This document shows, piece by piece, positions 3,768 to 63,701 of a stretch of 64,000 bases of DNA. The notes below the pieces were generated by a model. It searched no databases. It saw only the letters and a program-made list of their open reading frames with translations, and was not told where the DNA came from. Each line of letters starts with the position of its first letter. Within the stretch, counting starts at the first letter, position 1. Location of the stretch: positions 853,978 through 917,977 of the forward strand of contig JACPJW010000001.1 in NCBI GenBank assembly GCA_016187335.1. The letters are read 5' to 3'. Made by a program: the position numbers and the translations under genes. This DNA comes from Candidatus Aenigmatarchaeota archaeon. Lineage in GTDB: Archaea > Aenigmatarchaeota > Aenigmatarchaeia > GW2011-AR5.

Positions 3768-4121
3768 TTGCGGCCATCTTTTGATATGCCCACGGAAGAA
3801 GAACTGAAAAGGAAGATATTGCAGCAGCGCATGCTTGAGCAGCAACAGCATGCGCTTCAGGAGCATATGCAGGCACAGGCGCAGCAGCAGCAAATGGAAG
3901 AAGTCCTGCGCGTCATAAAGATGCAGGTCCTGGAGCCGAAGGCCCGCGAGCGCCTGGCAAACCTGAAGCTGGTCAAGCCGGAGCTGGCAACGCAGCTTGA
4001 GCTTTATCTGGCCCAGCTTTACCAGTCCGGCCAGATACGCGGAAAAATCAATGATGAGCAGATGGTCTCAATCTTAAAAAAGATTTCCGAGAAGAAAGAA
4101 TACAGGATAAAGAGGAAATAG
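3768..4121 (+). CDS. PDCD5/TFAR19-like double-stranded DNA-binding protein
   Basis: 117 aa with a Gln-rich helical N-terminus and a conserved ARERLANLKLVKPELA...QLYQSGQIRGKI block. Lies in the conserved ribosomal-protein neighbourhood. Confidence 0.6.
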   Translation: MRPSFDMPTEEELKRKILQQRMLEQQQHALQEHMQAQAQQQQMEEVLRVIKMQVLEPKARERLANLKLVKPELATQLELYLAQLYQSGQIRGKINDEQMVSILKKISEKKEYRIKRK

Positions 4122-4174
4122 CCTGGATTTAAAGATGCGCTAACAATTCTGTTACGCTTTTGAAAGTGATATTC

Positions 4175-4339
4175 ATGGGCTCAAAAAAAACATTGTGGCA
4201 GAAAATAAAGCTGATAGCGTCCAGAAGAAGCAACGCGCCGCGCTGGGCGGACATAAAGAAGTTCGGGCTGAAAAGAGCCAGAGGCCGCCGCATCGCTGCG
4301 GTTACCAAGCACTGGCGCCGCGGCAGGAACAAGATATAG
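4175..4339 (+). CDS. rpl39e: 50S ribosomal protein L39e (ORF below the 60 aa cutoff, not in the supplied track)
   Basis: Manual translation gives MGSKKTLWQKIKLIASRRSNAPRWADIKKFGLKRARGRRIAAVTKHWRRGRNKI* (54 aa). The basic HWRR C-terminus and its position just upstream of L31e match the archaeal L39e-L31e-eIF6 cluster. Confidence 0.65.
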   Translation: MGSKKTLWQKIKLIASRRSNAPRWADIKKFGLKRARGRRIAAVTKHWRRGRNKI

Positions 4340-34121: not shown

Positions 34122-35259
34122 GAAAAAAGTGGCTTCATTTATCATAGCCATACTCATACTGTCAATTTTGGCGATAATCATATTGTCCGTGTCAATGGCA
34201 TGGTTCTTTTTCAAGTCGCCGCCAAAGACCGGCGGGATTTCCGAGAATGTCCTGAAATCTTCAATGAAAGGGATGATGGGCTACGCATCGCCTGATGACA
34301 TTCCAATTAGGACTCCGCATGACAGGACACCGTTAAGCTTTAATGAGAAAGACGGCGTCAAAGAATTCCGTCTTTCTGCGGAGCCTATAAGATGGGAATA
34401 CGCGAACGGCTATTACGTGACAGCATGGGGGTTCAACGGCCAGGTGCCGGGACCGGAGATACGCGTTTCAGAAGGCGACAGGGTGAGAATAATTTTCACG
34501 AATAACCTTCCAAAGGCAACAGCAGTCCACTGGCACGGCGTAAACGTCCCTAACGGCATGGATGGCGTTCCCGGCGTTACGCAGGAAGCTGTAAAGCCCA
34601 ATGAAACTTTCGTTTACGAATTCACAGCAGAACCAAAAGGCACAAGATACTACCATGCCCACGGCTCGTCGCACATGGACGAGGCCCAGCAGCTTGACAT
34701 GGGATTGTACGGCGCATTCATAATAGAGCCAAGCAACTTTTCAGAAAAGTTGCATCAAAACGGTAAATACGACAAGGAATTTACGCTGCTGCTTGACGAA
34801 TGGGAAATCATGCCCGATGGAACAAACGCTGCCATGCTGCCAGGAATGCATTCAATGGACCATAACGTTTTTACCATAAACGGAAGAGCTTTTCCCGACA
34901 CGGAGCCGCTCAATGTCGCGGAAGGAGATAAGGTTCTTGTGAGAATAATAAACGCCGGCTCGTCAACGGCACATCCCATGCACTTGCACGGGCATTCCTT
35001 CAAAATTGTTGCCGTTGACGGGAATCCCGTGCAGGCGGGGGCGCAGATTGTGAGGGACACCCTGCCTGTGAGCCCGGGAGAGCGATATGATATAGAAATC
35101 ACGGCCGGCAATCCCGGAACATGGATATTCCACTGCCACGAGCTTCATCATGCGGACGGCGGGATGATAATACCTTTTATGTATGAAGGGTATGATAACA
35201 TAAGCAGGCCGCCATCCCAAAAAGTGCCGGGCTTGGGGCACGAAATGCACGGAGGATAA
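34105..35259 (+). CDS. multicopper oxidase (two/three cupredoxin domains)
   Basis: HWHG (type 2/3 Cu site), HxH (HAHGSSH), C-terminal [12 protein letters not shown] (type 1 Cu Cys plus His pairs), and an N-terminal signal anchor. Overlaps the copA 3' end by 17 nt. Confidence 0.8.
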
Positions 35260-38643: not shown

Positions 38644-38647
38644 ATTT

Positions 38648-38671
38648 GAAACTTTGCTTCTCCAAAGTTTC
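38648..38671. repeat. B-type hairpin (GAAACTTT-N8-AAAGTTTC) in the intergenic spacer between 38643 and 38697
   Basis: Perfect 8-bp inverted repeat, a member of the AACTTTT/AAAAGTT hairpin family seen elsewhere in the window. Confidence 0.55.
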
Positions 38672-38696
38672 ATCAAAAGAGACTAGTGGTGAATAA

Positions 38697-40292: not shown

Positions 40293-40360
40293 GAAACTTT
40301 TCCAAAAAGTTTCATCATTTGCGAAGAAACAAAGTTTCTTCGAAATCCCGAAGAACTTCG
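40293..40360. repeat. three consecutive hairpins immediately after the 40290 stop
   Basis: gaaactttt-cca-aaaagtttc (40293-40313), cgaagaaac-aaa-gtttcttcg (40322-40342), and cgaag-aa-cttcg (40349-40360). Confidence 0.55.
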
Positions 40361-42130: not shown

Positions 42131-43306
42131 TCAGTACCTTCTTCTGCCGAAGCGCCTGTGAAATCCCCTTTCCTGATACCTTCTTTTCACGAAAACCTTC
42201 GGATAGTCCCTTTCGACAATTTTTTCTATGTCAGAAATGAAACGCATTATGCGCCTGAAAGATTCGTGGTCCTTTTTTGACAGGAGGGTTATTGCCTTGC
42301 CCTCTCTGCCTATGCGCGCTGTCCTGCCTATCCGGTGCGTGTAGCCGTCGGCATCGTTTGGGACATCGTAATTGAAGATGTGCGTGACGTTTCGTATGTC
42401 CAGGCCGCGCGCCGCGACATCCGTGGCAACAAGTATATGCGGCCTGCCCCGGTGGAATCCCTCCATGACATGCATTCTCTGCTGCTGGGTCATGTCGCCG
42501 TGTATCGCTTTCGCCTCAGCGCCGTTCTGTTCCAGCGCGTCGGCGACAAAATCCGTTTCCCTTTTCGTGTTACAGAAAATTATTGCCAGAGAAGGCTTTT
42601 CCTTCTTTATCAGGTGCAGCAGGAGCGATATCTTGTCATCTTCGCGCACGTCATAATAAAACTGCTTCAGCTTGTGCTTCGGCACGCGCAGGGCGACTGA
42701 AATCCTGACAGGCTCGTGCATGTAATTCCTTGCTATTCGCATAACATCGTCGGATATCGTCGCCGAGAACAGCATGGTCTGCCTTTTCCGGGGCAGGGCG
42801 CTGATGATGCGCCGTATGTCGTCGATGAATCCCATGTCAAGCATGCGGTCCGCTTCGTCCAGGACAAGTATTTTTAGCGACGAGAAATTCACGGTTCTTC
42901 TGCTCATGTGATCCAATATTCTGCCGGGCGTTCCGACAACTATTTCGGATGACCGCAGCGCGTTTATCTGCGGCTCTATGCCCACGCCGCCGTAAACCTT
43001 CGCGACGTTCAGCTGCATGTATTTCGAGAATTTTCTCATCTCGTTGGCAACCTGCTCGGCCAGTTCCCTTGTCGGCACAAGGACAAGCGCCTGCACGCCG
43101 CGCCGCGCCTCAATGGAATGAAGCATCGGGACGCCGAAAGCAGCTGTTTTGCCGGACCCCGTCATTGACTGTGCCACGACGTCATTGCCGCGCATCGCTA
43201 TGGGTATAACTTTTTCCTGTATTTCCGTCGTCTTGACGAAGCGCATATCCTTGAGCGCTGACAGAACTCTTTTGTCAATATTCAGCTTTTCAAACATGAT
43301 AATCAA
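42131..43306 (-). CDS. deaD: DEAD-box ATP-dependent RNA helicase
   Basis: Q motif (FVKTTEIQ), motif I AQSMTGSGKT, PTRELA, DEAD (VLDEADRMLD), SAT, and HRIGRTAR. Confidence 0.85.
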   Translation of the reverse strand: MIIMFEKLNIDKRVLSALKDMRFVKTTEIQEKVIPIAMRGNDVVAQSMTGSGKTAAFGVPMLHSIEARRGVQALVLVPTRELAEQVANEMRKFSKYMQLNVAKVYGGVGIEPQINALRSSEIVVGTPGRILDHMSRRTVNFSSLKILVLDEADRMLDMGFIDDIRRIISALPRKRQTMLFSATISDDVMRIARNYMHEPVRISVALRVPKHKLKQFYYDVREDDKISLLLHLIKKEKPSLAIIFCNTKRETDFVADALEQNGAEAKAIHGDMTQQQRMHVMEGFHRGRPHILVATDVAARGLDIRNVTHIFNYDVPNDADGYTHRIGRTARIGREGKAITLLSKKDHESFRRIMRFISDIEKIVERDYPKVFVKRRYQERGFHRRFGRRRY

Positions 43307-43327
43307 TTGGATGGTAGGTTTATATCT

Positions 43328-43589
43328 GCAGAAAGCATAGCTTTCTGAGATTTCAAAAAGCTTTGCTTTTTGTAAATTCTGTTAAGATGGGGAGGAAATC
43401 CCGTTTTTATTGCATGAAATGCAGTCAATAAGTTCATAATACTTCTGCATTCGCTCAAAAAGCGAAGCTTTTTGGCGTGTCAGAAAGCTCTGCTTTCTGA
43501 ACATATGCAACTCGAAGAAAGCGAAGCTTTCTTGAGTCTTCGGAAAGCTATGCTTTCCTGAAGAAAATACTACGGGCTTTAGCCCGTAG
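43328..43589. repeat. tandem array of 7 short palindromic hairpins (A-type: xRAAAGC-N3-GCTTTYx) in the deaD upstream/leader region
   Basis: cagaaagc-ata-gctttctg (43328-43346), caaaaagc-ttt-gctttttg (43353-43371), caaaaagc-gaa-gctttttg (43456-43474), cagaaagc-tct-gctttctg (43481-43499), aagaaagc-gaa-gctttctt (43515-43533), ggaaagc-tat-gctttcc (43542-43558), and ctacgggct-tt-agcccgtag (43570-43589). Base changes are compensatory between arms. Confidence 0.6.
43561..43589 (-). terminator. GC-rich hairpin followed (on the minus strand) by a U-tract: candidate terminator of the 43642-44643 gene
   Basis: Minus-strand reading gives ctacgggctaaagcccgtag tattttctt, 50 nt after the stop. Confidence 0.3.
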
Positions 43590-43641
43590 ATATTTATCCG
43601 CTGCTTTGAACGGAAAATCCACTTTTCGCCCCGTTTTGCTT

Positions 43642-44643
43642 TTACCCGAACGTGAACGCGAAAATCTTCAGCCCGTCCTCCGTGACGATTTTTATCTCCC
43701 TGGTGCCGTGGTTTCCTTTTACGAGATTGTACATATCGGGATGCGTTACGACGACAAAGCTCTTTCCGCCCTCGGTGACGACATCATCGCCCGCTTCTTC
43801 TTTCTTCAGGGGCTTGTCGTTGAGCAGTATTTCCGCTTTCGCTTTGCTGGAGTCCATCACGGCGTTGACTTCCGAGGCCGTGAATTTCAATGTGAGGTGA
43901 CCTTTCTTCTTTTCATGCTGCAGGAACTCGTCGTGCTGCGACCAGTCGCCGTCAAGGTAGATTGTGTCATTGCGGTGGTGCTTCGGGTCTGCGTAGGAAC
44001 CGCAGTCGCCGGGCATGCAGACGATGCCGTTGCCCAGCCCGGGATTGCGCAGCAGGCCGCAATACAGTTCGGGTGTTATTTTCAAAGCGGAAGGGCGGGG
44101 CTCGCTCCCAAGCTTGGCCGGAAGATCATCCTTGGTTTTTCTTTTTATTCCGAGCAGTTCGACAATCTTTCCCTCCGTTTCCCCGTAGGCGCCCTCGCCG
44201 GCGTGGTCGTAAACAATAACGCCTTTCCTGTCAACAAGAAGCTTTCTCGGCCACCATCTGTTTTTGTATCTGTACCATGTTTTGTATTCGCTGTCAACCG
44301 CTACGGGGTAAGCAATGTTATACTTTTTCACGGCGCTGCGCACATTTTCAGCGTCCTTCTCAAAATCAAACTCCGGCGTATGCACGCCGATTATCACCAA
44401 GCCTTTCTTTGAGTACTGCTGATGCCACTGCTTCAGGTATGGCAGCGTCCTCTGGCAGTTGACGCATGAATACGTCCAGAAATCTATCAGAACAACCTTG
44501 CCCTTTAGTTGGCTGATTTTCAGCGGCTTTGAATTGAGCCATGCCACAGCGTCTATTTCAGGCGCCTGTTTGCCCATCCATCCCTGTGAAAGCAGTCTTT
44601 CGAACATGATTAACACCGGAAGAAAAGCAGAGCGATCCGGCAA
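43642..44643 (-). CDS. thioredoxin-like (TlpA/ResA-type CxxC) oxidoreductase with a C-terminal beta-rich domain (DipZ C-terminal-like)
   Basis: FWTYSCVNCQRTLP is the redoxin active site. An extra domain of about 170 aa with conserved Cys (YCGLL, CMPGDCGSY) follows. Confidence 0.6.
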   Translation of the reverse strand: MPDRSAFLPVLIMFERLLSQGWMGKQAPEIDAVAWLNSKPLKISQLKGKVVLIDFWTYSCVNCQRTLPYLKQWHQQYSKKGLVIIGVHTPEFDFEKDAENVRSAVKKYNIAYPVAVDSEYKTWYRYKNRWWPRKLLVDRKGVIVYDHAGEGAYGETEGKIVELLGIKRKTKDDLPAKLGSEPRPSALKITPELYCGLLRNPGLGNGIVCMPGDCGSYADPKHHRNDTIYLDGDWSQHDEFLQHEKKKGHLTLKFTASEVNAVMDSSKAKAEILLNDKPLKKEEAGDDVVTEGGKSFVVVTHPDMYNLVKGNHGTREIKIVTEDGLKIFAFTFG

Positions 44644-45036: not shown

Positions 45037-45057
45037 GAAACTTTTCGGAAAAGTTTC
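45037..45057. repeat. B-type hairpin gaaacttttc-g-gaaaagtttc abutting the 5' end of tRNA-Cys
   Basis: Perfect 10-bp inverted repeat whose arms are identical to the hairpin at 40293-40313. Confidence 0.55.
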
Positions 45058-45291: not shown

Positions 45292-46395
45292 ATGAGAAAT
45301 CTTAATCCTGACTTTGATATAAAAGGTTCGTCGCCGGCAATAAATGGGGTAAAATTGCTGATTGAAACGTATGCGCCATGGGATATTTCGGTCCTAATAA
45401 CAGGAGAGAAGGGAACCGGAAAAGAACTTGTTGCGCGCCAGATGCATAATAGGTCAGGACGAAAAGGCAATTTTGTTGCTCAGAATTGCGGCGGCGTACC
45501 AGAGGGTCTCGCGCCTACGCTTTTTTACGGCCATAGAAAAGGTGCATTTACAGATGCCAGGGATGACAAACCCGGGCTATTCTTGCTCGCTGAAAACGGC
45601 ACGTTGTTTCTTGACGAAGCCGAAGCCATGCCTCTGTCAATTCAACCGGTATTACTAAGGCCGCTTGATGGTTACGGCATCAGGCCGATAGGCAGCACTG
45701 CAGAAATTTATCCTAATTTTCGTGTTGTTGCAGCCACAAATCAAGAGCTTACACCAGACGGTTTCAGGAGCGACCTTCTTGACCGGCTTGATGGTTTCAG
45801 AATTCATATGCCGCCGCTGCGCGAGATACGAGAGGATATCCCAGAGATAGTAGAATTTTACTTGGAACAGATGAGGCGTAATTACGGTAGGAGAAAACAA
45901 TTTACAAGTGACGCGCTTTCCTTGTTGAAAAATCATGACTTTCCCGGAAACACGCGCCAGCTTATAAATGTTGTAAAATACGCTTATTTTGGCTCGAATA
46001 TGCACGATTTTATAGGAGCCGACCTGGTAGAACGGAGGCTATTTGGGAAAACAGCTGTAGAAGTTCCTGAAAAAGATGCGCCAGCTTATGAACCCGGAAG
46101 AGTTGTACCTGTTACCGGCAACGGTGAAGTCCGGGATAGAATTGCTGCCATACAAAATCCGCGCGAAAGAGAAATAGTTGAGGCGCTTTTAAGGCATGGC
46201 GGAAGAATGAGAGATGTCGCAGCAGAAATGCATATTACGTATCAAGGATTGTACGGAAGAATAAGAGCCTTAGGTTATCCAGGAACGGAAGAATTATATG
46301 TAAAGCATGAAATACCGAATTACAGGACTAGAACATCCAAGGCTCCTCCAGGTGTGCGGGTTGAAGTGCGGCAAAGAAGCAGCCATGTTATGTAG
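45292..46395 (+). CDS. sigma54-interaction-domain AAA+ transcriptional activator (PspF-like bEBP lacking a sensor domain) with a C-terminal Fis-type HTH
   Basis: Walker A GEKGTGKE, GAFTGA-like loop KGAFTDA, Walker B LFLDEAEAM, R-finger RVVAATNQ, and the FRSDLLDRL...PPLREIREDI block. C-terminal HTH IVEALLRHGGRMRDVAAEMHITYQGLYGRI. Confidence 0.75.
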   Translation: MRNLNPDFDIKGSSPAINGVKLLIETYAPWDISVLITGEKGTGKELVARQMHNRSGRKGNFVAQNCGGVPEGLAPTLFYGHRKGAFTDARDDKPGLFLLAENGTLFLDEAEAMPLSIQPVLLRPLDGYGIRPIGSTAEIYPNFRVVAATNQELTPDGFRSDLLDRLDGFRIHMPPLREIREDIPEIVEFYLEQMRRNYGRRKQFTSDALSLLKNHDFPGNTRQLINVVKYAYFGSNMHDFIGADLVERRLFGKTAVEVPEKDAPAYEPGRVVPVTGNGEVRDRIAAIQNPREREIVEALLRHGGRMRDVAAEMHITYQGLYGRIRALGYPGTEELYVKHEIPNYRTRTSKAPPGVRVEVRQRSSHVM

Positions 46396-46425: not shown

Positions 46426-47559
46426 TTATATACCGTGTTCTATGCCGTAAAGAATGGCTTCGGCCCTGCTGTGAACGCCTAATTTCTTGAAAAGAGTGCC
46501 AGCATGCGTTTCAACTGTTTTAACTTGTAATCCCATCCTTTTTGCGATCTGCCTATATGTATTTGCCTCGCCGCTGGCCAGAACGCGCAGCACTTCCTTT
46601 TCACGTCGTGTAAGAGGTTCAGGCGGGGAGTAATCATGTCCGGTGACTTGGTCCTGCCGGGATTCAAATCCATGAAAACTGCCGTTCCTTAAGAGTTCGC
46701 GGAACCTGGCGTAAACGATAAGTTGCGCTTTTTTTTCAAGACCCAGCTTTTCCATAATATGTGAAACATGTGCTTCAGCCGTCTTCACCGACATGCAAAG
46801 GCTGCCGGCAATCTCCTTGTTTCCGGTGCATACACCCTCCCCGATAAGCTTCAGGATTCTTTGCTCCATTGGGGCAAGTTTCAAAGTATTGTATTTAACG
46901 CCTTCGGGATGCCCGCGGAAATCTGCGTCTTCAGGCCTTCTGTAGACGTAGCCTATCCCGCCAACATTCATGATGTAGGGGGTTTCGGCGTCTCCGGTTT
47001 TCAAGTTAAGCGACCGGACCATTGAATCAACATCAATTTCATTCAAATGACCGTTTCCTGCTGCGTGGCTTAGTTCCTTGGGCGTCATGACAGTGCCGGA
47101 TGCCGCCAGCGCGTGCAGCAGCGACAGCTCCGGGCGCGACATTTCTCTGCGCCTGCCGCCAATCACCGCGTAATCCTCGGTCATCGTAATTTGCGAGTCT
47201 CTGTACACTATCCTTGGTTCTGCCATGTGCTTGAGCCTGTCCTGCTCAAACTTGATCCTTTCAACGTCAATCCGCATGCATACCCTCTCTCCATCTATCG
47301 GACTGATGTATCCTTGCGTCATAGCATCGTTCAAATAACTCCAAAATGTCCTGGCATCCATCCCCATATTCCTGCATTTAGCCCAAAGGGAATCTTCATA
47401 AAATATTCCGGTCTCCTGATTGGTGCTTTCAAGGGCTGCAAGAACAAGCTGCGCAAAACCGCTCATAGGGCGGTGATGCTGTTTGTTGTTTTGTCTCCTA
47501 TAGCTGAAATCATTTACTCCTGTCTGGTAAGTAATTTTTGCTCTTTTTCCTGAAGCCAT
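46426..47559 (-). CDS. transcriptional regulator with two LuxR/GerE-type HTH domains
   Basis: Two segments matching the LuxR-type HTH signature (MEQRILKLIGEGVCTGNKEIAGSLCMSVKTAEAHVSHIMEKLG and TRREKEVLRVLASGEANTYRQIAKRMGLQVKTVETHAGTLFKKLG). Confidence 0.6.
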   Translation of the reverse strand: MASGKRAKITYQTGVNDFSYRRQNNKQHHRPMSGFAQLVLAALESTNQETGIFYEDSLWAKCRNMGMDARTFWSYLNDAMTQGYISPIDGERVCMRIDVERIKFEQDRLKHMAEPRIVYRDSQITMTEDYAVIGGRRREMSRPELSLLHALAASGTVMTPKELSHAAGNGHLNEIDVDSMVRSLNLKTGDAETPYIMNVGGIGYVYRRPEDADFRGHPEGVKYNTLKLAPMEQRILKLIGEGVCTGNKEIAGSLCMSVKTAEAHVSHIMEKLGLEKKAQLIVYARFRELLRNGSFHGFESRQDQVTGHDYSPPEPLTRREKEVLRVLASGEANTYRQIAKRMGLQVKTVETHAGTLFKKLGVHSRAEAILYGIEHGI

Positions 47560-48377: not shown

Positions 48378-49727
48378 GTGAGAGCGATGAAAAGGACGCA
48401 CAAAGGAACTTTTCAGGAAAGTTCCACCAGAACGGAGAGGGCACAACCAGAACCCCTTTCAGGCGAGAAGACGATTTACGAATCAATCGCCTCAACGTTT
48501 TCTGATTTCTTCAGCCTTCTCGGGGGGAGCTCCGATGTCCTGAGGCAGAGCCTCACGGCAATAATGCTGAGCATTGCAACGGACGTGTTTGCAGGCGTGC
48601 TGCTTCACGGCGCCGAGGAGACGCTGGCGCTTCTGCCGGGGCTTATCGTTCTTGTTCCGGCGGCCATAGGAATGCGCGGAAACATATTCTCGTCCATGGG
48701 CTCGCGCCTGGGATCTGCCCTCCATCTGGGAGCTGTTGACAGGCTGTCCCTTGACGACAGGACCGTGAAGAACAATATTTACGCCCCATTGAGCCTCAGC
48801 ATCATTTTTTCTGTCCTTTCCGCTTTCATCGCGAAAGCCGTGCTCCTTCTGGCAGGGTTCCCGAGCATAAGTGTTTTTTCGCTTGTCCTGATCTCCTTCA
48901 TCGGCGGCATGATATCAAGCATCCTCCTGCTGATAATCACCTTCGGCATTTCCTTCCAGTCATACAGGCGCGGATGGGATCCGGACAACCTTACGTCGCC
49001 TATGCTGTCAGGACTTGGCGACCTGTTCACGATACCGGCATTGCTCATCGCGGCGGAATTCGTCATTGGCCTGGGCGGCAGGACCCAGATTGCCGAGGTT
49101 TTTGTGCTTTCAATTTTCATTCTCAGCGTCCTTTTCTTCTTCAAGGCCGGGATGTCCAGGGAAGCGGTAGCGGGCAGCTACAGGGGGATAGTTCTTCAGA
49201 GCGCTCCCGTCATCGCGGTGGGCCTTCTGCTCGATTCTTTCGCCGGCCTTTTCATCCACATAAAATTCGAGAACTTCGCGACCCTCGGGTTCCTGATTGT
49301 CATGCTTCCAGCTTTCCTGGAAGAGGGCGGGAACATAGGGACTATACTCGCCTCCCGGCTTGGGACGAAGCTGCATCTGGGCACTTTGGACCCCGAGCTT
49401 ACGATATCAAAGGAAATAAAGAAGGAATTCTTCAACTCTTACTTCCTTGCCATGGTTATATTCCCTGTAGTTGCCGTGGCTTCGTACTTCACGGCAAGGA
49501 TACTTTCGATACCTGTCTTGCCGCTTGCGCAGGCCGTGTACATCTCCGTATTCGCGGGGCTTGCGCTGACGACGCTGATCATCATACTCAGCTTCTCGAT
49601 TTCCGTCATTTCCTACAAGCACAACCTGGATCCTGACAACGTTACGATACCGCTGATAACGAGCACAGCCGACCTGGTGGGCGCGTTCTCGCTTCTCGCA
49701 ACCGCAAGCCTGTTCGGGATAATTTAA
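48378..49727 (+). CDS. MgtE/SLC41-family divalent cation transporter (duplicated MgtE TM domain)
   Basis: Two internal repeats, each with PGLIVLVPAAIGMRGNIFSSMGSRLGSALHLG-like and DPDN(L/V)T motifs, and 10 TM segments. Confidence 0.7.
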   Translation: MRAMKRTHKGTFQESSTRTERAQPEPLSGEKTIYESIASTFSDFFSLLGGSSDVLRQSLTAIMLSIATDVFAGVLLHGAEETLALLPGLIVLVPAAIGMRGNIFSSMGSRLGSALHLGAVDRLSLDDRTVKNNIYAPLSLSIIFSVLSAFIAKAVLLLAGFPSISVFSLVLISFIGGMISSILLLIITFGISFQSYRRGWDPDNLTSPMLSGLGDLFTIPALLIAAEFVIGLGGRTQIAEVFVLSIFILSVLFFFKAGMSREAVAGSYRGIVLQSAPVIAVGLLLDSFAGLFIHIKFENFATLGFLIVMLPAFLEEGGNIGTILASRLGTKLHLGTLDPELTISKEIKKEFFNSYFLAMVIFPVVAVASYFTARILSIPVLPLAQAVYISVFAGLALTTLIIILSFSISVISYKHNLDPDNVTIPLITSTADLVGAFSLLATASLFGII

Positions 49728-49747
49728 GAAATAATATGTTCTTTGCT

Positions 49748-49844
49748 CAGAAAGCAAAGCTTTCTGGCAACTCAAGAAGCTTATGCTTCTTCGAGTTTTC
49801 CGTAGACGATTTTCGTTTTGATGCAACTTTTCTGAAAAGTTGCA
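49748..49844. repeat. hairpin cluster between convergent transporter and mscL genes: two A-type and one B-type
   Basis: cagaaagc-aaa-gctttctg (49748-49766), aagaagc-ttat-gcttctt (49774-49791), and tgcaactttt-ctg-aaaagttgca (49822-49844). A T-rich tract (tctatttcttttcatcttt) follows. Confidence 0.55.
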
Positions 49845-52714: not shown

Positions 52715-52906
52715 GCGTCTGTAGTCTAAACAACTTTTCTTGGAAAGAAAAATTGTATCAAAAGAATCCAAGAAAGTTGGGATAACGGTTAGGACCTCAG
52801 CCTTCCATGAAAGGCTGTCAGAAGAAAATTTTAGAAAGAAGTTTTTGACCAAACTTTTTTCTAAAAAGTTTGGCTGATGATCCGGGTTCGAATCCCGGCG
52901 GACGCA
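52715..52906 (+). tRNA. tRNA-Gly(UCC) with two introns (D-loop intron and canonical 37/38 intron)
   Basis: Acceptor GCGTCTG/CGGACGC, TA, D-stem GTCT (52724-52727) pairing GGAC (52792-52795), and D-loop AAAC[intron about 52732-52785]CGGTTA. C26, anticodon stem TCAGC (52797-52801), loop C-T-TCC-A (52802-52807), intron 52808-52871, G38, stem GCTGA (52873-52877), variable TGAT, T-arm CCGGG-TTCGAAT-CCCGG, discriminator A. Matches the archaeal tRNA-Gly pattern GTAGTCTA..GGTTAGGAC...CTTCCA. Confidence 0.75.
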
Positions 52907-57195: not shown

Positions 57196-60100
57196 TTACG
57201 CCGTAGCGTTTATCCTTATCGTGCGCGAAGCCGTGACGTTCGTGTTCCCGAAGGTGTCGTTGGCGTAAACCTTGTACGTGTAATTGCCGATGCTGAGCCC
57301 TGTCTGGTTCCTGAACCAAAGAAGCTTTGTCGCAGACAGGTTGGTCATGCTGTAGTTGGTTCCGTTGAACTCAAGCTGCGCTACATCGGCTGCCTCGTTT
57401 AATGTGATATTAACAAACGTGTGGTTGACGTTAATAACAGCGCCGCTGCTTGCCGTTGGCGCCACAAAAGTAATGTTCGGCCCGTTCGTGTCCACGGTGA
57501 AATTGATTACGGCTGATAAATTGCTTCCGCTGGAATTGCTCACGTTCACCTGCAGTTTGTTGGACCCTTCGCCCCCGAGGAACGATGTGTTCCCGCATGC
57601 AAATGTCGTGAATGATATCCACTCGTCGCTGGTAAGGTTGTAAGTGCATGTTGTTATGTTCCCTGTCCATGTGAAATTAAGAGTGATGTTCTTCGCCGTA
57701 TACGTCGTGTTTGTCGGGCTTTGTACGGATATCTGCGAGGTGAAATTATTCAGGGTCACAGTAAATCTTATGAGCGAAGAATTCGCTGTTGTCCCGCCCG
57801 TGCTGTTGGCGTATATTGTCAGATTGTTCGCCCCTTCGGCTGCCGTGAACGTGCTGTTGCCGCAGCCGGCTAGCGTTACATTCGTTGTGTTGCTGTTCAG
57901 CCTGTACCAGCATGCCGACGCCGTTGCGTTGACTACGGAGTAGCTCAGCGATATGTTCGTGAAACTATAGCTTGTGTTGGCTGGCGATGAAACGGTTACC
58001 GCAGGCGTTCCGTTCATGTTCAACGTGAACCTGACAATAGACGAGTTGACCGTCGTGCCATTGGTGCTGGTCGCATAAACGGTTACGTTGTTGGCGCCGC
58101 TTGAAGCCGTGAAAGAGCTGTTTCCGCAGCCTGTCAGCGTTACATTGCTGGCGTTGTTGAGCTTGTACCAGCACGCTGTGACTGTTCCGCTCACTATGGA
58201 ATAATTAAGCGAAATGTTCGTGGACGCGTACGTTGTGTTCGCGGGCGATGAAACAACTACCGCAAACGTCCCGTTCACGCCGGTGGCGTTGCTCGTTGCG
58301 TTTGACAGTCCTCCTATAAGGTTGAACGTCGTCGCGTTCGTCGCGGAGTTCCAGTCGTTATCATAGCAGTACGTATACACTGTATAGTTCTGCTGCGTCG
58401 TCATGCCCGCCGTGCTGTGGTTGTACGAATGCGACGTTGAGTCTGTGGAAACAGGGACTCCTGAGTTGCTCCACCACTTTGACGCGTAGCTGAAATATGC
58501 CGTGCTTGAATTTGTAGGATCATACTTCGTAAGGTTGCACGCCGAAGGCAGCGAAGTGCCGTTGCTTCCGCAATAGTTAGCGTTGTACTGCCCGTAATTG
58601 TAAATGTAAATATAGCATACGGCCTGCTCCGTTGTGGTCGCAGTGAACAGGATGCTTGTCGCGTTTATCACCTGCTCCGCCGTTGGCGATGTTATCGTTA
58701 TGCTCGGCGCAGTCCTGTCAATGATGCGGAACGTTGCGTCCTTTATTATTCCTATTTCTCCAGTGGTTTTTTCCGTGACAAAGATCTTCACCGCGTAATC
58801 GCCGAAGTCCCATAACCCGCCGGATGCATTGATGCGTATATATCCCGAACCTGTCATGTTGGCTCCTGCAACGCTCGTGAACCTGCCGCTGGTGAGGTTC
58901 ATTGCCTCAAACGTCGCGTTCTGGTATACCCTGCAGCTGTCAGACCAGCATCCTGATGATGTCTTAGCTATCTGGACATTGGTTACGTTCACGCTTATCT
59001 GGGTTCCGCTCACGTTCCGCAGCGAATACACGAACATTGTCACGTTCTCGCGCTGGCCGAAGGAATTCTTCCATCCCCCGCTGTCGTCAACGGAATACAT
59101 GTATCCCGTCAGCGTCTGCTGCGCGTAGAAATAAACGCTGTTGTAGGATTCTATGATTGATGAAGCGTCGTCCTGTTCCACGTATTCAAAGTAAATATAA
59201 TTGTATCCCTCGTTCCACCCGTTCGCAGGGGGCACTATTGTTACTATGGCTGACCTGTTTATGAAGCATGTCGTTGATGTCTGTGAGTCGCAGCTTCCTA
59301 TCACAAACCTGTACCTTGTCTTGCTGGGCCATCCCCAGTAGAATGCCGACGAGAGGTTGCCTGTTGCCGGCGCGCCGGCTGGGGTTGTGAGCGTTATGTT
59401 GACGGTTATGTTCGTGTTGAGGCCGACATTGTAACTGGATATCCTGTTGGTGCTGTCAATGAACGAGGTTACCCTGAACCAGAACCATGCCGTCTGCGTG
59501 TCGTTCGTCAGGTTGTCCTTGACTATTATGGTGCCGCTCTTGTAGCCCGGCCTCCACTTGCCGCTTGTGGGGTTTATCACAAGCGTCGTGGTGTTCCTGA
59601 ACGTCGAGGCGTTGCTGCTTATGCTGTAGTTGAGGTTCGTTATCCTGTAGACGCCGTTGGTCCATGATGTTTCCTGGACTTTCGTGACTGTATAATTTCC
59701 GTTGATAAGGGCGCTGTTGTACCAGTCAGGCTCGTTGACAGTCAGGGAAACAGACGCGTTTTCAGTTGTGCCGACGTTGTAGGAAACAATATTTGTGGAA
59801 ACCCTGAAAGGCTGCACGGAGAACCATATGTACCCTTTTGACGTTGTATTTTCCACGCTCTCTCTCATCTTGATTTCGCCGTTGTACCATCCTGAAGGCC
59901 AGTTTCCTGCAAGATACGTCACGTTTATTATTTGGGTTCCGTTTACAAGCAGCGGCGTTATGTTTATGTCGCCGGGATATCTGAACTCCCGCTGCGACTG
60001 CGTTGTCTGGTCCCACATGCGTATGACGGCTTCTGTTATGGTTGCGTTGACGTAGTCAGCAGCGGTATAGCTGCTTTTTTGCGATTTTGTTGTTGTCACG

Positions 60101-63100
60101 TTGAAATAAATCGGGGTGTTGCCCTTGTTGTTGTAGACGTAACCGGAGCCGTTTGCATTCGTCGGCTGCGTGTTCACGTAGAAGGTTATGACATTGAACC
60201 ATCCGTAGCCGCTTTCCGTGCCGTTCAGGTCTAAAACAACTGAATAATATCCTGACGACCACGTGCCCCCTGTCGGCGAGATGTTGAGCAGGTATTTGCC
60301 GTGCGTTGCCGTATTGGCAGAGGAAAACCACGGGCTTGAGGTGTTTATGGTTATCGGCGTCGCCGTGAAGTTGCTTGTTGTCAGCTCAACAGGCGGCCAC
60401 TGGGAATAGTCAAGTATTTTCTTCACGTTTATCGTGACGTTGCCCAGAGCCGTTCCTCCGTTGTCGTTCCAGTTGCTGGCCTCCGTTATCCTTACGTACA
60501 ATGACACGTTCTCGCGGGCGTTTAATGAGTTCTTGTAATCAAAGCTGCTGCCCCTTATTTCAACGGGCTGCGCGTAGGCGTCCCAGTTCCTTATGCTGAA
60601 CCACGCCTCGCCGTAATCCACCTGGCTGTTAACGGTCACCTTGATGACCGCTGAATAATATCCTCCTGCCCAGATCCCGGATGAGGAACGGCCCGAAGGA
60701 AGCGTGACGCTGCCCACGCCGTTCGTTATGGTCATGTTCAGGCCCGTTGCGTTGTAGTCGTATTTTATCGGCGGCCATATCCATTCGCCGACGCCGCCGT
60801 AAAAGTTTATGCTGTCAACAACAGCTGTCCCCGACAATCCGTTGGAAGACGTCCACCACCCGCTTCCCGCCTCGTAGACGTTGACATTCAGCGAGATGTT
60901 GGAGGTGCCTTTGTTCGCCCAGTTGGTGCTGTAGCCGTACACGTAAAACGCCCGCGCCTCAAAATAGCTTCTTGCCTTGTGGTACGTTATCTTGTCGTCG
61001 CCGAGTATGTTGAAGGTCACGACGTGCCTGCCGCCGTCCCACGTGCCGTCGGGCTGGACGGTGCAGATGTACCCGCCGCTGTTGTCCGTGGCGCTGCATG
61101 TTGACGCGCTCGTATTCAGCGACTTTGTTTTTCCTGTCTGCGTGTTGAACACGTTTTCTATCGTCACTGTCGCGTTGTTGATTGACCTTTTCTTTGTCGT
61201 GTCAAAGCTGCATTGCGTTCCGCGGCCGTAAGAGGCGTTTCCTGATATGTTGCTCAGGGAAGCCTTCCCTGTAGGATTCTGCGCCTCGTTGATTGTCAGC
61301 TGGAAGTAAATCGTATCCGACGTCCTGAACTGGTACCAGTAGTCGCTCGTGCTGGTATCGGATGTGCCTTTTGCCGACGCGCATACGTCATAAGGATTTA
61401 TCCCGAAGCGCGTTGTTACGACAGCTGACTTGTTGTTGGCGTAAACCTCAACAAGATATACGCCGCCTGTCTTCGGGGGATCAATCTGCAGCCTGCCTGC
61501 CGTGCTGTTCCACGCCCACTGCAGCGTCGCGTCGGAAAAATTCATGGAGCTTACGTTCGTCTCGCTGTATGAAAACTGCGTGCCGTTGTCGTAAGTTATG
61601 CTTGATAAAGCCGCGTTGTATATCGTGATATTTGACGTCACGTTCTTGCCGGACAGGGATATGTAAACGAATTCCGTCGTGCCAAAGAGCTCTTTTATAT
61701 TTCCTTCTGAATCCGATGGGTACGAAGTTGCTGTTATGTCCGTTGCTTTTATTGTCTGATCCGCCGATTCGTAAACCCCCGAGTAGTTCGCTGCTACTGA
61801 AAGCGTATAGTCTCCTACCGTGGACGGCACTGCCAGGTTGAATTCGTAGCACGCCTTCCCGCCGCAGCTTGCGTTGTAGCGGACCGTGGTATTTCCTACG
61901 ATGGAGCCCAGCGGGTTTTTCAGAAGGATTGTGAAATTTGACGTGAGGTTCTGCAATACAGTGCCGTTGGCCCTTTCGGTCGGGTACGCTTCAAACGAGA
62001 CGTTCTTGCCGACGAACGCGGTGTAGCCGTATTCAAAGCCGGAGTTCTGGGACGCTTTCTTGAAGCTCATGGACCAGTCGCGCACCTGGAACGATGTTGT
62101 CGCGTTGACGGTCTCGCCGCCCTGCTTCGCAACGGAAATCCTTGTCGTGTAAAATCCTACAATGAGCGACGAAGAAGCAGTAAAAGGTATCTTGTCAACG
62201 AAGCCGTTTGATGAGTTGAGCAGCACGCTTGTCAGGTTCAGCACGTTGTTGCCGTTCGTGTCTATGACATCGCCCGTCGCGTTGTAAACCCCCGTCGGCG
62301 TCGTGGAGTTGTAGCTGACCCGGACTTCAACGAAGCCCGTCTCGCCCCTTGTGAAGATATTCTTGAAAACAAGAGCGGAAGAGTCTTTCATGTACGCTTC
62401 AACGTCAAACGGCACGACCTTGAAATTGGTAAAGCCCACGAAGTTGTTTGCCTCCAGAATGTATGTGCCTGATGCGGAGGGCGCCGTCGTGTTTATGGCG
62501 CATGTTCCCGACGCCGACGTCACGCAGGTGTAGCTGCTGATGATGCTTTCGTTCAGCTGCATCATTGTCATGTTTATTGTAATATTGCTGACAGCGGCGA
62601 AGCTGTCGCCCACTTTCTGCACGGCTCTCACTGTTATTGACATGTTTTCGGACGCGTAGAAATTTATTTTCGCCAGCTGAAAGAGAATGTCGTCAATCCT
62701 GCTGTTCACGACAACGATGTTTGCCTTGGAAATCCATATGCCGCTTTCTATTGACGAGTTGGCAACTAATATGTACGTACCTGTCGCATTGGGCGATAAT
62801 ATTGCCGTGGCGGAAGGGTTGAAGCTGCTCCTGGAGAAGAAGGTGCCGTTCTCGTTTGTCGTGAAAGTGTAATTGCTGACTGTCCCGTTGGTTGAATTGA
62901 GCATGGAAACGTTAACGTTCACGCTGCCGAGATAAGTCGTGATGTTGAGCGTGGAATTGGATGTGATGTTCAGCACGGTCCCTGTTATGGAAACATTTTC
63001 CGCGGGCCCGAAGACGTACTTGGAAACGACAAGCTGTATCTCGTAGGTGCTGGATGCAAAGGATATGGACGAAAGTAGCAATACAAACAAGAACAGGAAC

Positions 63101-63117
63101 AAGCTGTTATTTTTCAT
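57196..63117 (-). CDS. giant secreted surface (S-layer-like) glycoprotein, 1973 aa
   Basis: Signal peptide and extreme Asn/Thr/Ser content with very many N-x-S/T sequons. Four tandem Ig-like repeats of about 85 aa at the C-terminus (VTVSSPANTSYSFTNISLSYS...CWYRLN...). No TM anchor. Confidence 0.6.
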   Translation of the reverse strand: MKNNSLFLFLFVLLLSSISFASSTYEIQLVVSKYVFGPAENVSITGTVLNITSNSTLNITTYLGSVNVNVSMLNSTNGTVSNYTFTTNENGTFFSRSSFNPSATAILSPNATGTYILVANSSIESGIWISKANIVVVNSRIDDILFQLAKINFYASENMSITVRAVQKVGDSFAAVSNITINMTMMQLNESIISSYTCVTSASGTCAINTTAPSASGTYILEANNFVGFTNFKVVPFDVEAYMKDSSALVFKNIFTRGETGFVEVRVSYNSTTPTGVYNATGDVIDTNGNNVLNLTSVLLNSSNGFVDKIPFTASSSLIVGFYTTRISVAKQGGETVNATTSFQVRDWSMSFKKASQNSGFEYGYTAFVGKNVSFEAYPTERANGTVLQNLTSNFTILLKNPLGSIVGNTTVRYNASCGGKACYEFNLAVPSTVGDYTLSVAANYSGVYESADQTIKATDITATSYPSDSEGNIKELFGTTEFVYISLSGKNVTSNITIYNAALSSITYDNGTQFSYSETNVSSMNFSDATLQWAWNSTAGRLQIDPPKTGGVYLVEVYANNKSAVVTTRFGINPYDVCASAKGTSDTSTSDYWYQFRTSDTIYFQLTINEAQNPTGKASLSNISGNASYGRGTQCSFDTTKKRSINNATVTIENVFNTQTGKTKSLNTSASTCSATDNSGGYICTVQPDGTWDGGRHVVTFNILGDDKITYHKARSYFEARAFYVYGYSTNWANKGTSNISLNVNVYEAGSGWWTSSNGLSGTAVVDSINFYGGVGEWIWPPIKYDYNATGLNMTITNGVGSVTLPSGRSSSGIWAGGYYSAVIKVTVNSQVDYGEAWFSIRNWDAYAQPVEIRGSSFDYKNSLNARENVSLYVRITEASNWNDNGGTALGNVTINVKKILDYSQWPPVELTTSNFTATPITINTSSPWFSSANTATHGKYLLNISPTGGTWSSGYYSVVLDLNGTESGYGWFNVITFYVNTQPTNANGSGYVYNNKGNTPIYFNVTTTKSQKSSYTAADYVNATITEAVIRMWDQTTQSQREFRYPGDINITPLLVNGTQIINVTYLAGNWPSGWYNGEIKMRESVENTTSKGYIWFSVQPFRVSTNIVSYNVGTTENASVSLTVNEPDWYNSALINGNYTVTKVQETSWTNGVYRITNLNYSISSNASTFRNTTTLVINPTSGKWRPGYKSGTIIVKDNLTNDTQTAWFWFRVTSFIDSTNRISSYNVGLNTNITVNITLTTPAGAPATGNLSSAFYWGWPSKTRYRFVIGSCDSQTSTTCFINRSAIVTIVPPANGWNEGYNYIYFEYVEQDDASSIIESYNSVYFYAQQTLTGYMYSVDDSGGWKNSFGQRENVTMFVYSLRNVSGTQISVNVTNVQIAKTSSGCWSDSCRVYQNATFEAMNLTSGRFTSVAGANMTGSGYIRINASGGLWDFGDYAVKIFVTEKTTGEIGIIKDATFRIIDRTAPSITITSPTAEQVINATSILFTATTTEQAVCYIYIYNYGQYNANYCGSNGTSLPSACNLTKYDPTNSSTAYFSYASKWWSNSGVPVSTDSTSHSYNHSTAGMTTQQNYTVYTYCYDNDWNSATNATTFNLIGGLSNATSNATGVNGTFAVVVSSPANTTYASTNISLNYSIVSGTVTACWYKLNNASNVTLTGCGNSSFTASSGANNVTVYATSTNGTTVNSSIVRFTLNMNGTPAVTVSSPANTSYSFTNISLSYSVVNATASACWYRLNSNTTNVTLAGCGNSTFTAAEGANNLTIYANSTGGTTANSSLIRFTVTLNNFTSQISVQSPTNTTYTAKNITLNFTWTGNITTCTYNLTSDEWISFTTFACGNTSFLGGEGSNKLQVNVSNSSGSNLSAVINFTVDTNGPNITFVAPTASSGAVINVNHTFVNITLNEAADVAQLEFNGTNYSMTNLSATKLLWFRNQTGLSIGNYTYKVYANDTFGNTNVTASRTIRINATA

Positions 63118-63335: not shown

Positions 63336-63701
63336 ATGACGAAGAAAATTATTATTGCTGATGACCAGAGCTTCTTTAGAGATTCTATTGTTTTATTAGT
63401 CCAAGGTGAATATCCCACTCTTGAAATTGAAACAGTTGATGACGGGAAGCCCCTTGTAGAAAAAGTCAGAAATGGCGGGTATTCTTTTGTTTTAACGGAT
63501 AATAATATGCCTGTGATTAAGGGAACAGAAGCAGTAAGACAAATAAGACAATACGACGAGAATACTCCAATATATTTGATGAGTAGCAGCAACGATCCTG
63601 ATACAGTAAGAGGAGCTTTAAAAGCAGGAGCAACAGATTTCATATATAAAAATAAATTATGGGAAGAATTACAACCAGTTCTGAAAAAGCATCTGGGATA
63701 A
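63336..63701 (+). CDS. stand-alone response-regulator receiver (CheY-like) protein
   Basis: IIIADDQ, phospho-Asp region FVLTDNNMPVIKG, LMSSS (Thr/Ser) and FIYKN (Lys) all intact. About 36 % GC. Confidence 0.7.
   Translation: MTKKIIIADDQSFFRDSIVLLVQGEYPTLEIETVDDGKPLVEKVRNGGYSFVLTDNNMPVIKGTEAVRQIRQYDENTPIYLMSSSNDPDTVRGALKAGATDFIYKNKLWEELQPVLKKHLG

Follow-up and report, generated by a model that had tools for sequence, protein, structure and literature searches.

A hairpin cluster upstream of deaD in a DPANN archaeon as a probable pile-up of dispersed palindromic repeats

What accounts for the dense cluster of short perfect hairpins just upstream of deaD, a DEAD-box helicase gene, in a Candidatus Aenigmatarchaeota archaeon? 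The cluster sits inside a 344-nucleotide (nt) spacer separating two tandem minus-strand genes, a redoxin gene and deaD, and was analysed within a 64-kb stretch of contig JACPJW010000001.1, hereafter the window. The gene content of the window is archaeal and chromosomal (CysRS, eIF6, SRP54/FtsY, proteasome alpha, exosome Rrp4/41/42, SBDS and diphthamide synthase), and the best named relatives of its DeaD, with up to 85% identity, belong to Candidatus Aenigmarchaeota, a DPANN lineage. An earlier sequence-only reading had described a tandem array of seven hairpins in a long structured leader of deaD. Its fallback was a small mobile palindromic element of the repetitive extragenic palindrome (REP) or MITE (miniature inverted-repeat transposable element) kind, maybe also a terminator, and it is this fallback that the insertions and recurrent modules described below support best. 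In our view the cluster is probably a recent pile-up of low-copy dispersed repeats, similar to REP/BIME sequences or to mitochondrial double-hairpin elements, and possibly acting also as terminators or insulators. The hairpins and the two flanking genes are the following.

42131 to 43297, minus strand: DEAD-box helicase gene deaD, 388 amino acids, ATG at 43295-43297
43329 to 43347: unit 1, CAGAAAGC-ATA-GCTTTCTG, 8-bp stem and 3-nt loop, covariance-model score 30.3 bits
43354 to 43372: unit 2, CAAAAAGC-TTT-GCTTTTTG, perfect palindrome with 3-nt loop, covariance-model match
43456 to 43474: unit 3, CAAAAAGC-GAA-GCTTTTTG, perfect palindrome with 3-nt loop
43480 to 43500: unit 4, TCAGAAAGC-TCT-GCTTTCTGA, perfect palindrome with 3-nt loop
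43515 to 43533: unit 5, AAGAAAGC-GAA-GCTTTCTT, perfect palindrome with 3-nt loop
43542 to 43558: unit 6, GGAAAGC-TAT-GCTTTCC, perfect palindrome with 3-nt loop
43570 to 43589, minus strand: GC-rich hairpin CTACGGGC-TTTA-GCCCGTAG, which reads CTACGGGCT-AA-AGCCCGTAG on the minus strand and is followed there by TATTTTCTTC; within insertion 1 (below)
43642 to 44604, minus strand: redoxin/thioredoxin-like gene, upstream of the hairpin cluster, with a thioredoxin-like C-terminal domain

Of the seven RAAAGC-N3-GCTTTY hairpins claimed, six are present, at 43329-43558, while the seventh, at 43570-43589, is an unrelated GC-rich hairpin found in single copy; together with TATTTTCTTC it scores terminator-like, and we place it as such for the redoxin gene. 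The pattern RAAAGCNNNGCTTTY has seven matches in the 64 kb against 0.12 expected, a number reached in none of 100 shuffles. Its seventh match, at 49750, confirms the similar units that had been reported at 49748-49791, where the partner at 49774-49791 deviates in having a loop of 4 nt. In the window, 15 palindromes pair perfectly over at least 8 bp around a 3-nt loop, whereas Markov simulations yield 1.3 +/- 1.4. Scanned with a covariance model built on the unit, the 64 kb give just the seven known units, which lie in two intergenic spacers and score equally on both strands. The DNA of the source genome scanned for AAAGC units comprised the window and about 11 kb of flanks taken from Logan contigs, some 75 kb altogether, and the model detects no further AAAGC-type unit in the flanks. 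The covariance-model count suggested earlier, run on these ~75 kb, places all units between genes and comes to seven units at two loci. Among other deaD regions, the model finds two units in the locus L005 and none in L006, L007, L414 and L415. The units are paired, 25-26 bp apart, and their 5' flanks read ctg, ttt, gct, tgt, tcg or ttc. No Rfam family matches the window at gathering score, and a permissive threshold returns only sub-threshold, miRNA-like noise at the hairpin region. The AAAGC family is dispersed, lineage-restricted and low-copy in the DNA sampled.

Whether a sequence or a structure is conserved was addressed with 31 units from the window and 11 DPANN loci, picked by their 5-bp core alone, with the outer stem unconstrained. 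These DPANN loci come from among the matches listed in a pair-pattern scan of genome contigs, where the listed matches are mostly bacterial terminator-type large hairpins, plus the DPANN loci; the matches listed in a triple-pattern scan of metagenomes are other repeat families, mostly GC-rich. Stem positions 6, 7 and 8 form Watson-Crick pairs (GC, AT, CG and TA) in 29, 28 and 26 of the 31 units, and pairing drops to chance at positions 9, 10 and 11 (8, 11 and 10 units). The hairpin unit is sharply bounded, with a stem of exactly 8 bp and a loop of 3 nt, the latter length being seen in nearly all units. Two-sided changes occupy 30 cells against 9.2 +/- 2.8 in shuffles (0/500 as high; 27 distinct units). 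The compensatory changes between arms that had been claimed are therefore borne out by a core-only, unconstrained test, in the window and in other DPANN archaea, and covariation also supports the claim that such symmetry implies base pairing and not sequence recognition. Because G-T wobble occurs in one of 93 unconstrained stem cells and the loops are of 3 nt, we infer that the form selected or generated is a base-paired hairpin, probably of DNA or required on both strands, and not a one-strand RNA. The same strict 8-bp/3-nt geometry is common to loci of Aenigmarchaeota, Pacearchaeota and Nanoarchaeota, which would point to a structure-specific factor of the host or of a mobile element.

How, then, did the units reach the spacer? 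It was aligned with the orthologous spacers of the closest relatives, L005, which has a 91% identical DeaD and a spacer of 105 nt, and L006, for which the figures are 85% and 37 nt. Compared with both, and between conserved flanks, the window has two insertions.

43318 to 43325, minus strand: putative deaD TATA box ATATAAAC, 20 nt upstream of the ATG
43326 to 43377, minus strand: insertion 2, 52 nt, equal to the two-hairpin module A (units 1 and 2), which is 78% identical to module B, inverted; AT borders; adjoins the deaD TATA box
43378 to 43405, minus strand: native spacer, 28 nt, orthologous to the L005 spacer (AACGGGATTTCC...CTTAACAGA)
43406 to 43592, minus strand: insertion 1, 187 nt, composite, with some 45 nt of unique sequence besides units 3-6 and the GC-rich hairpin; ATAAA direct-repeat borders

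The supposed single tandem array thus resolves into two insertions with 28 nt of native spacer between them, and at least two insertion events appear to have brought modules into the spacer after the split from the closest sequenced relatives. L005 has insertions of its own that are missing from the window, one of about 106 nt with four hairpins and another forming a two-hairpin junction. Relative to L005, the distance from the redoxin stop codon to the deaD promoter is greater by about 240 bp in the window, and the DNA directly upstream of the deaD TATA box, where the transcription factor B recognition element (BRE) would lie, is now element sequence. Modules A and B can be viewed as inverted arms of 51 nt, 84% complementary; a single MITE having them as terminal inverted repeats was ruled out, as the intervening 43378-43405 aligns with the native spacer of L005.

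Besides the window, the deaD orthologue set consists of L005, L006, L007, L414, L415, L416 and L417, with identities of 58-91%. In each of these eight orthologues a TATA-like octamer ends 16-21 nt ahead of the start codon, and the spacing between TATA box and start site in archaea is established. Because of these two facts, the arrangement implies a deaD mRNA that is predicted to be leaderless, with transcription starting at or beside the ATG, and would place all hairpins upstream of the core promoter. Between the ATG and the nearest upstream hairpin, whose end is at 43329, the distance is 32 nt; the start region has no Shine-Dalgarno sequence and no hairpin that sequesters the start codon. 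None of the seven other orthologues has a hairpin array upstream of deaD.

The units do not recur singly. They are assembled into oriented two-hairpin modules of about 50-65 nt and into larger modules of two to four hairpins, up to about 110 nt, with spacers of 6-8 nt. Besides module A, the window contains three.

43451 to 43507, plus strand: module B, with units 3 and 4 (a CAAAAAGC hairpin, a TCAGAAAGC hairpin, then ACATATG); homologous in L019, L022 and L074
43507 to 43568, minus strand: module E3, with a T-rich lead TATTTTCTTC, the unit 6 hairpin and a bulged hairpin ACTCAAGAAAGC-TTC-GCTTTCTTCGAGT (43510-43537, containing unit 5)
49740 to 49799, plus strand: module E1, with CAGAAAGC-AAA-GCTTTCTG (49748-49766), a bulged hairpin ACTCAAGAAGC-TTAT-GCTTCTTCGAGT (49770-49796) and TTTT

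Module A and, inverted, module B follow one plan, here called type II, in which a C(A/G)AAAAGC hairpin, a spacer of 6-7 nt and a TCAGAAAGC hairpin succeed each other. Type II modules occur in L019, L022 and L074 with 71-81% identity, spacers included, next to pilin genes, ornithine decarboxylase/EamA genes and genes for fn3/Kazal proteins. They stand in either orientation relative to the flanking genes, and are antisense in module B of the window and in L074. The plan of the E modules is a T-rich lead, a GGAAAGC or CAGAAAGC hairpin, and a 12-bp hairpin ACTCAAGAAAGC-N3-GCTTTCTTCGAGT with a conserved bulge. Module E3 is 76% identical to E1, which begins 13 nt after the stop codon of an MgtE gene convergent with an MscL gene, and 83% identical over 65 nt to an element of another Aenigmatarchaeota genome (L127), in which none of the surrounding 8 kb is homologous to the window. 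A four-hairpin element of L005, inserted between genes that abut in the window, has the same two end hairpins as module E, and the end hairpin is common to E1, E3 and this element, conserved bulge included. A profile of the E module gives high scores to its three founders alone. Across loci the contexts of the modules are mutually unrelated (pilins, ornithine decarboxylase/EamA, MFS/DHDPS, an SLT protein). Comparable pairs with other stems occur, among the matches listed, in Pacearchaeota, Nanoarchaeota and further Aenigmarchaeota loci, and one pair lies within an intervening sequence of the 23S rRNA gene in L070, with a group I intron core some 100 nt away. In viral contigs the patterns for two-hairpin modules match nothing, and those for single units are non-specific.

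Some of these loci deserve a remark in their own right. The Aenigmatarchaeota 23S rRNA locus of L070 (223-6930) spans 6.7 kb against the 2987 positions of the rRNA model, with the group I intron core at 3926-4176 and the family hairpin pair at 4276-4320. At the end of a Nanoarchaeota contig (L083, 4052-4266) we observed a 116-nt tandem duplication with two family-like hairpins per copy. Finally, L099, a Nanoarchaeota-labelled contig, encodes at 870-2021 a sigma-70 family protein (regions 2 and 4) and may be a mis-binned bacterial sequence from the candidate phyla radiation; the host label of its hairpin pair is doubtful and calls for caution.

Additional clues on copies in the source genome come from assembly. 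Several sequencing runs gave independent Logan contigs that match the window at 100% identity and end at 43471 and 43568, two points bracketing modules B and E3, as well as at 49839 and 38645, beside other hairpins. If these contigs derive from a graph with k = 31, the ends at 43471 and 43568 would imply that copies of about 43441-43597 exist elsewhere in the genome. At 49839 the contig end falls on an inverted repeat, exact over 30 nt (49814-49843 versus 34733-34762), that contains the hairpin GCAACTTTT-CAG-AAAAGTTGC, a member of a sister family. The copy at 34733-34762 lies in frame within a multicopper oxidase gene and produces, by comparison with the closest homologues, a 7-residue insertion in the inter-domain cupredoxin linker, aligned against their K...VKE. 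As a separate matter, the odd end of L003 was considered as a variant and ruled out, being a Nextera adapter.

We classify the family as short palindromic dispersed repeats of DPANN archaea, outside any named family, and the pile-up of dispersed repeats proposed above might have come about as follows. The basic unit would be 19 nt long and perfectly palindromic, pairing over 8 bp around a loop of 3 nt, and 6-8-nt spacers would join such units into oriented modules of two to four hairpins, about 50-110 nt long. Copies would spread through a trans-acting mechanism that recognises hairpins, of the REP/RAYT or IS200/IS605-MITE kind, by which modules would be copied and pasted into AT-rich DNA just after stop codons. 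Modules that have landed would be tolerated, or useful to the upstream gene, as hairpins at transcript 3' ends and as insulators or U-tract terminators. At the present locus they would have moved the redoxin gene ~240 bp further from the leaderless deaD promoter, given the spacer four T4+ tracts where there was one, and replaced the DNA just upstream of the deaD TATA box.

Several observations weigh against this interpretation. The border repeats of the insertions are short, unequal and AT-rich (ATAAA versus AT), with no clear target-site duplication, and copy number is low, with seven units at two loci in ~75 kb where classical REPs are far more abundant. A Pfam scan of the ~55 open reading frames (ORFs) of the window revealed no transposase, RAYT or integrase. 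The E-type modules are sense to the upstream gene in all three assessable cases, right after stop codons, which could reflect selection for function and not selfish spread. Contig breaks, moreover, could have causes other than repeats.

Which known systems do the repeats resemble? REP, BIME and REPIN sequences are mobilised by RAYT Y1 transposases. The repeats share with them an intercistronic or 3' siting, small clusters, alternating orientation and presence or absence between relatives; all seven covariance-model units of the window are likewise outside genes. REP/BIME/REPIN sequences are short extragenic palindromes for which roles in termination and mRNA stabilisation have been suggested (PMC3733652, PMC2817692, PMC3116915). 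The units differ in being perfect, with an 8-bp stem, a 3-nt loop and a length of 19 nt, whereas REPs measure 20-40 nt and are imperfect. They also lack the terminal GTAG/CGTC tag of REPs (PMC3733652); only the GC-rich hairpin ends in GTAG, and this lies within its stem. Unlike bacterial REPs, they occur in a DPANN archaeon, at low copy density in the sampled DNA, and no RAYT is encoded among the ~55 ORFs of the window. The text of the RepRanger survey of bacterial and archaeal REPs has no occurrence of the term DPANN.

Mitochondrial double-hairpin elements of fungi, sponges and algae, together with kindred palindromic or hairpin-forming repeats of mitochondria, are mobile and consist of two adjacent short hairpins; no transposase is known for them. 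Like the present modules they are dispersed in intergenic, intron and rRNA-gene regions of small compact genomes and vary in presence between close relatives. They are nevertheless elements of eukaryotic organelles with an unrelated sequence family, and resemble the present modules in architecture and behaviour alone. Rickettsia palindromic elements, hairpin repeats of 100-150 nt, can insert in frame into protein genes, as the sister hairpin family does with its 7-codon insertion in the multicopper oxidase gene; that in-frame case, however, belongs to the AACTTTT-N3-AAAAGTT family and not to the AAAGC family. The ends of IS200/IS605-type elements are hairpins recognised as single-stranded DNA, and insertion leaves no target-site duplication. 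Their derivatives in haloarchaea and Sulfolobus, MITEs and palindrome-associated transposable elements, are, similarly to our modules, small non-autonomous elements with hairpin ends, but here we identified no autonomous IS, TnpA, TnpB or cleavage tetranucleotide, nor, in contrast to a MITE, terminal inverted repeats bounding one inserted element.

If the repeats are dispersed in this manner, small modular hairpins would be actively remodelling the intergenic and promoter-proximal DNA, and even a coding loop, of a DPANN genome of ~0.9 Mb, in a group whose genomes are usually called streamlined and repeat-poor. Short-read assemblies are also interrupted by the elements at fixed points, a matter of relevance to the reconstruction of DPANN genomes from metagenomes. 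We further put forward, as a tentative and rather speculative extension, that DPANN archaea carry undescribed portable multi-hairpin modules built of strict 19-nt units, which spread between gene ends, introns and coding loops with no linked transposase and act as bidirectional terminators or insulators, so that genes exchange 3'-end signals by insertion. Should the modules indeed terminate transcription, portable terminators would be described for the first time in archaea.

A first alternative, which we consider unlikely, is that the hairpins are terminators or insulators evolved in place, through local duplication under selection for bidirectional termination before the deaD promoter and with no transposition. 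Both window loci follow soon after a stop codon (53 nt for redoxin, 13 nt for MgtE), as do most arrays in the other DPANN loci, at less than 100 nt. The second hairpin of the E module precedes TTTT in sense orientation (in E1 the end is GAGTTTT, 69-72 nt after the MgtE stop), the GC-rich hairpin with TATTTTCTTC scores terminator-like, and the orthologous MgtE 3' end is a plain T-tract in L006 and a T-tract palindrome in L005. The sense (minus) strand of the spacer bears the T-tracts ATTTTCC, TATTTTCTTC and two copies of GCTTTTTG, and T4-T5 tracts are embedded in hairpin arms. Archaeal terminators are U4-tracts whose number governs termination, more of them terminating more strongly (PMC8716108). 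The modules resemble the U-tract terminators that act with aCPSF1 in following stop codons and in having T4-T5 tracts in the arms and after the E-module hairpin, but no hairpin is required in the terminators described, nor are these dispersed repeats (PMC8716108). Evolution in place leaves unexplained the 76-83% identity that entire modules, along with their spacers and flanks, show across unrelated loci and genomes, the antisense type II modules of the window (module B) and L074, the pair within the 23S rRNA intervening sequence, and the copying of a sister hairpin family into a coding region. A terminator role is plausible all the same as a secondary function, at transcript 3' ends, of dispersed repeats.

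In another, improbable scenario, the 19-bp palindromes are operators for a dimeric factor encoded nearby (PadR/TRASH, MarR/TrmB or ArsR-type) that controls deaD and/or redox and metal genes. The perfect dyad symmetry with its fixed 3-bp centre, the pairing of sites at 25-26 bp, one pair adjoining the deaD TATA box, and the several regulators encoded in the neighbourhood would all fit. Yet the outer stem varies between units while remaining complementary within each, contrary to what is expected of one protein reading identical half-sites, and the sites are absent from orthologous deaD promoters. Other copies follow stop codons, sit in the rRNA intervening sequence or, at 49740-49799, separate convergent genes, and the insertion pattern shows arrival as ready-made modules.

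More improbable still is an undescribed family of RNA-processing signals or of genes for small non-coding RNAs. Its favourable points are the oriented modules with a conserved bulge and one L005 copy of the second E-module hairpin with a T-G pair, a wobble on the sense strand only; set against these are the lack of any Rfam family at threshold and of a promoter conserved with the modules, the equal unit scores on both strands and the presence of modules in both orientations. Least probable of all is the long structured 5' untranslated region or RNA thermometer of a cold-shock-type DEAD-box helicase that the sequence-only reading had claimed: the array does lie upstream of deaD on its coding strand and the predicted fold of the 344-nt spacer is far more stable than that of shuffles (-120.5 kcal/mol, z = -8.05), but that fold is a trivial result of the palindromes themselves, identical units lie downstream of unrelated genes, and the proposal is contradicted by the absence of the array in all seven orthologues, by a TATA box 20 nt before the ATG that puts the array upstream of the promoter, and by the 32-nt gap to a start codon no hairpin touches. 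A tempting but wrong annotation, an archaeal helicase thermosensor, is thereby removed.

Two further candidates concern the repeated word and the region as a whole. A DNA-uptake-signal-like word was ruled out, GAAAGC having 102 occurrences against 100.5 expected, and a replication origin seems unlikely, with no Orc1/Cdc6 among the window ORFs scanned and no repeats of the origin recognition box type.

The sister family mentioned above, (G/T)RAACTTTT-N3-AAAAGTTYC, has stems of 8-11 bp with a T-tract in the 5' arm.

AACTTTT-family sites: window 34733-34753, 38647-38672, 40293-40313, 45037-45057, 48405-48425, 49822-49844 and 52849-52873; L419 239-261

Its copies mostly lie within 30 nt after a stop codon, and it is found also in L006, L007, L070, L019 and L060, being wider in Aenigmarchaeota than the AAAGC family. 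It may represent a bidirectional U-tract terminator. At the junction between the PhoU/TrkA-C and MgtE genes a hairpin overlapping the first MgtE codons as called (window 48405-48425, L005 6422-6442, L006 2206-2226) holds its place in all three genomes, and its sequence changes are compensatory (GGAACTTT / CAAGCTTTT / GGAACTTTT). It may serve translational or Mg-related control, or else the start may be mis-called.

Perfect hairpins are concentrated in the metal/redox region of the window, at 30-53 kb, with its genes for a copper ATPase, a multicopper oxidase, DsbA, redoxins and YHS/TRASH proteins, and are almost absent from the housekeeping half, at 1-30 kb. Bacterial-type regulators in this archaeal genome are encoded at 45292-46395, 46426-47559 and 63336-63701; they are an AAA+ protein with a sigma-54-interaction domain, for which no sigma-54 context is obvious, a protein that has a pair of LuxR/GerE domains, and a response-regulator receiver standing alone. 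On the minus strand, 57196-63117 is an ORF of 1973 amino acids with no Pfam match at E <= 1e-4, within which Logan contigs break at 60072 and 61834, suggesting internal repeats.

Finally, the metagenome scan brought up two abundant, GC-rich four-hairpin elements with AAGC-N3-GCTT tips, probably bacterial. The first reads CGTTCCCAAGC-tct-GCTTGGGAACG ... GGAAGC ... CGAAGC ... CGTTCCCAAGC-aga-GCTTGGGAACG, and the second is flanked by ggagtGC...GCactcc. Their loci fall into two groups.

One group: L135-L137, L144, L148, L153, L155, L161, L176, L183, L209, L241, L245 and others
Other group: L154, L158, L172, L184, L198, L219 and L242

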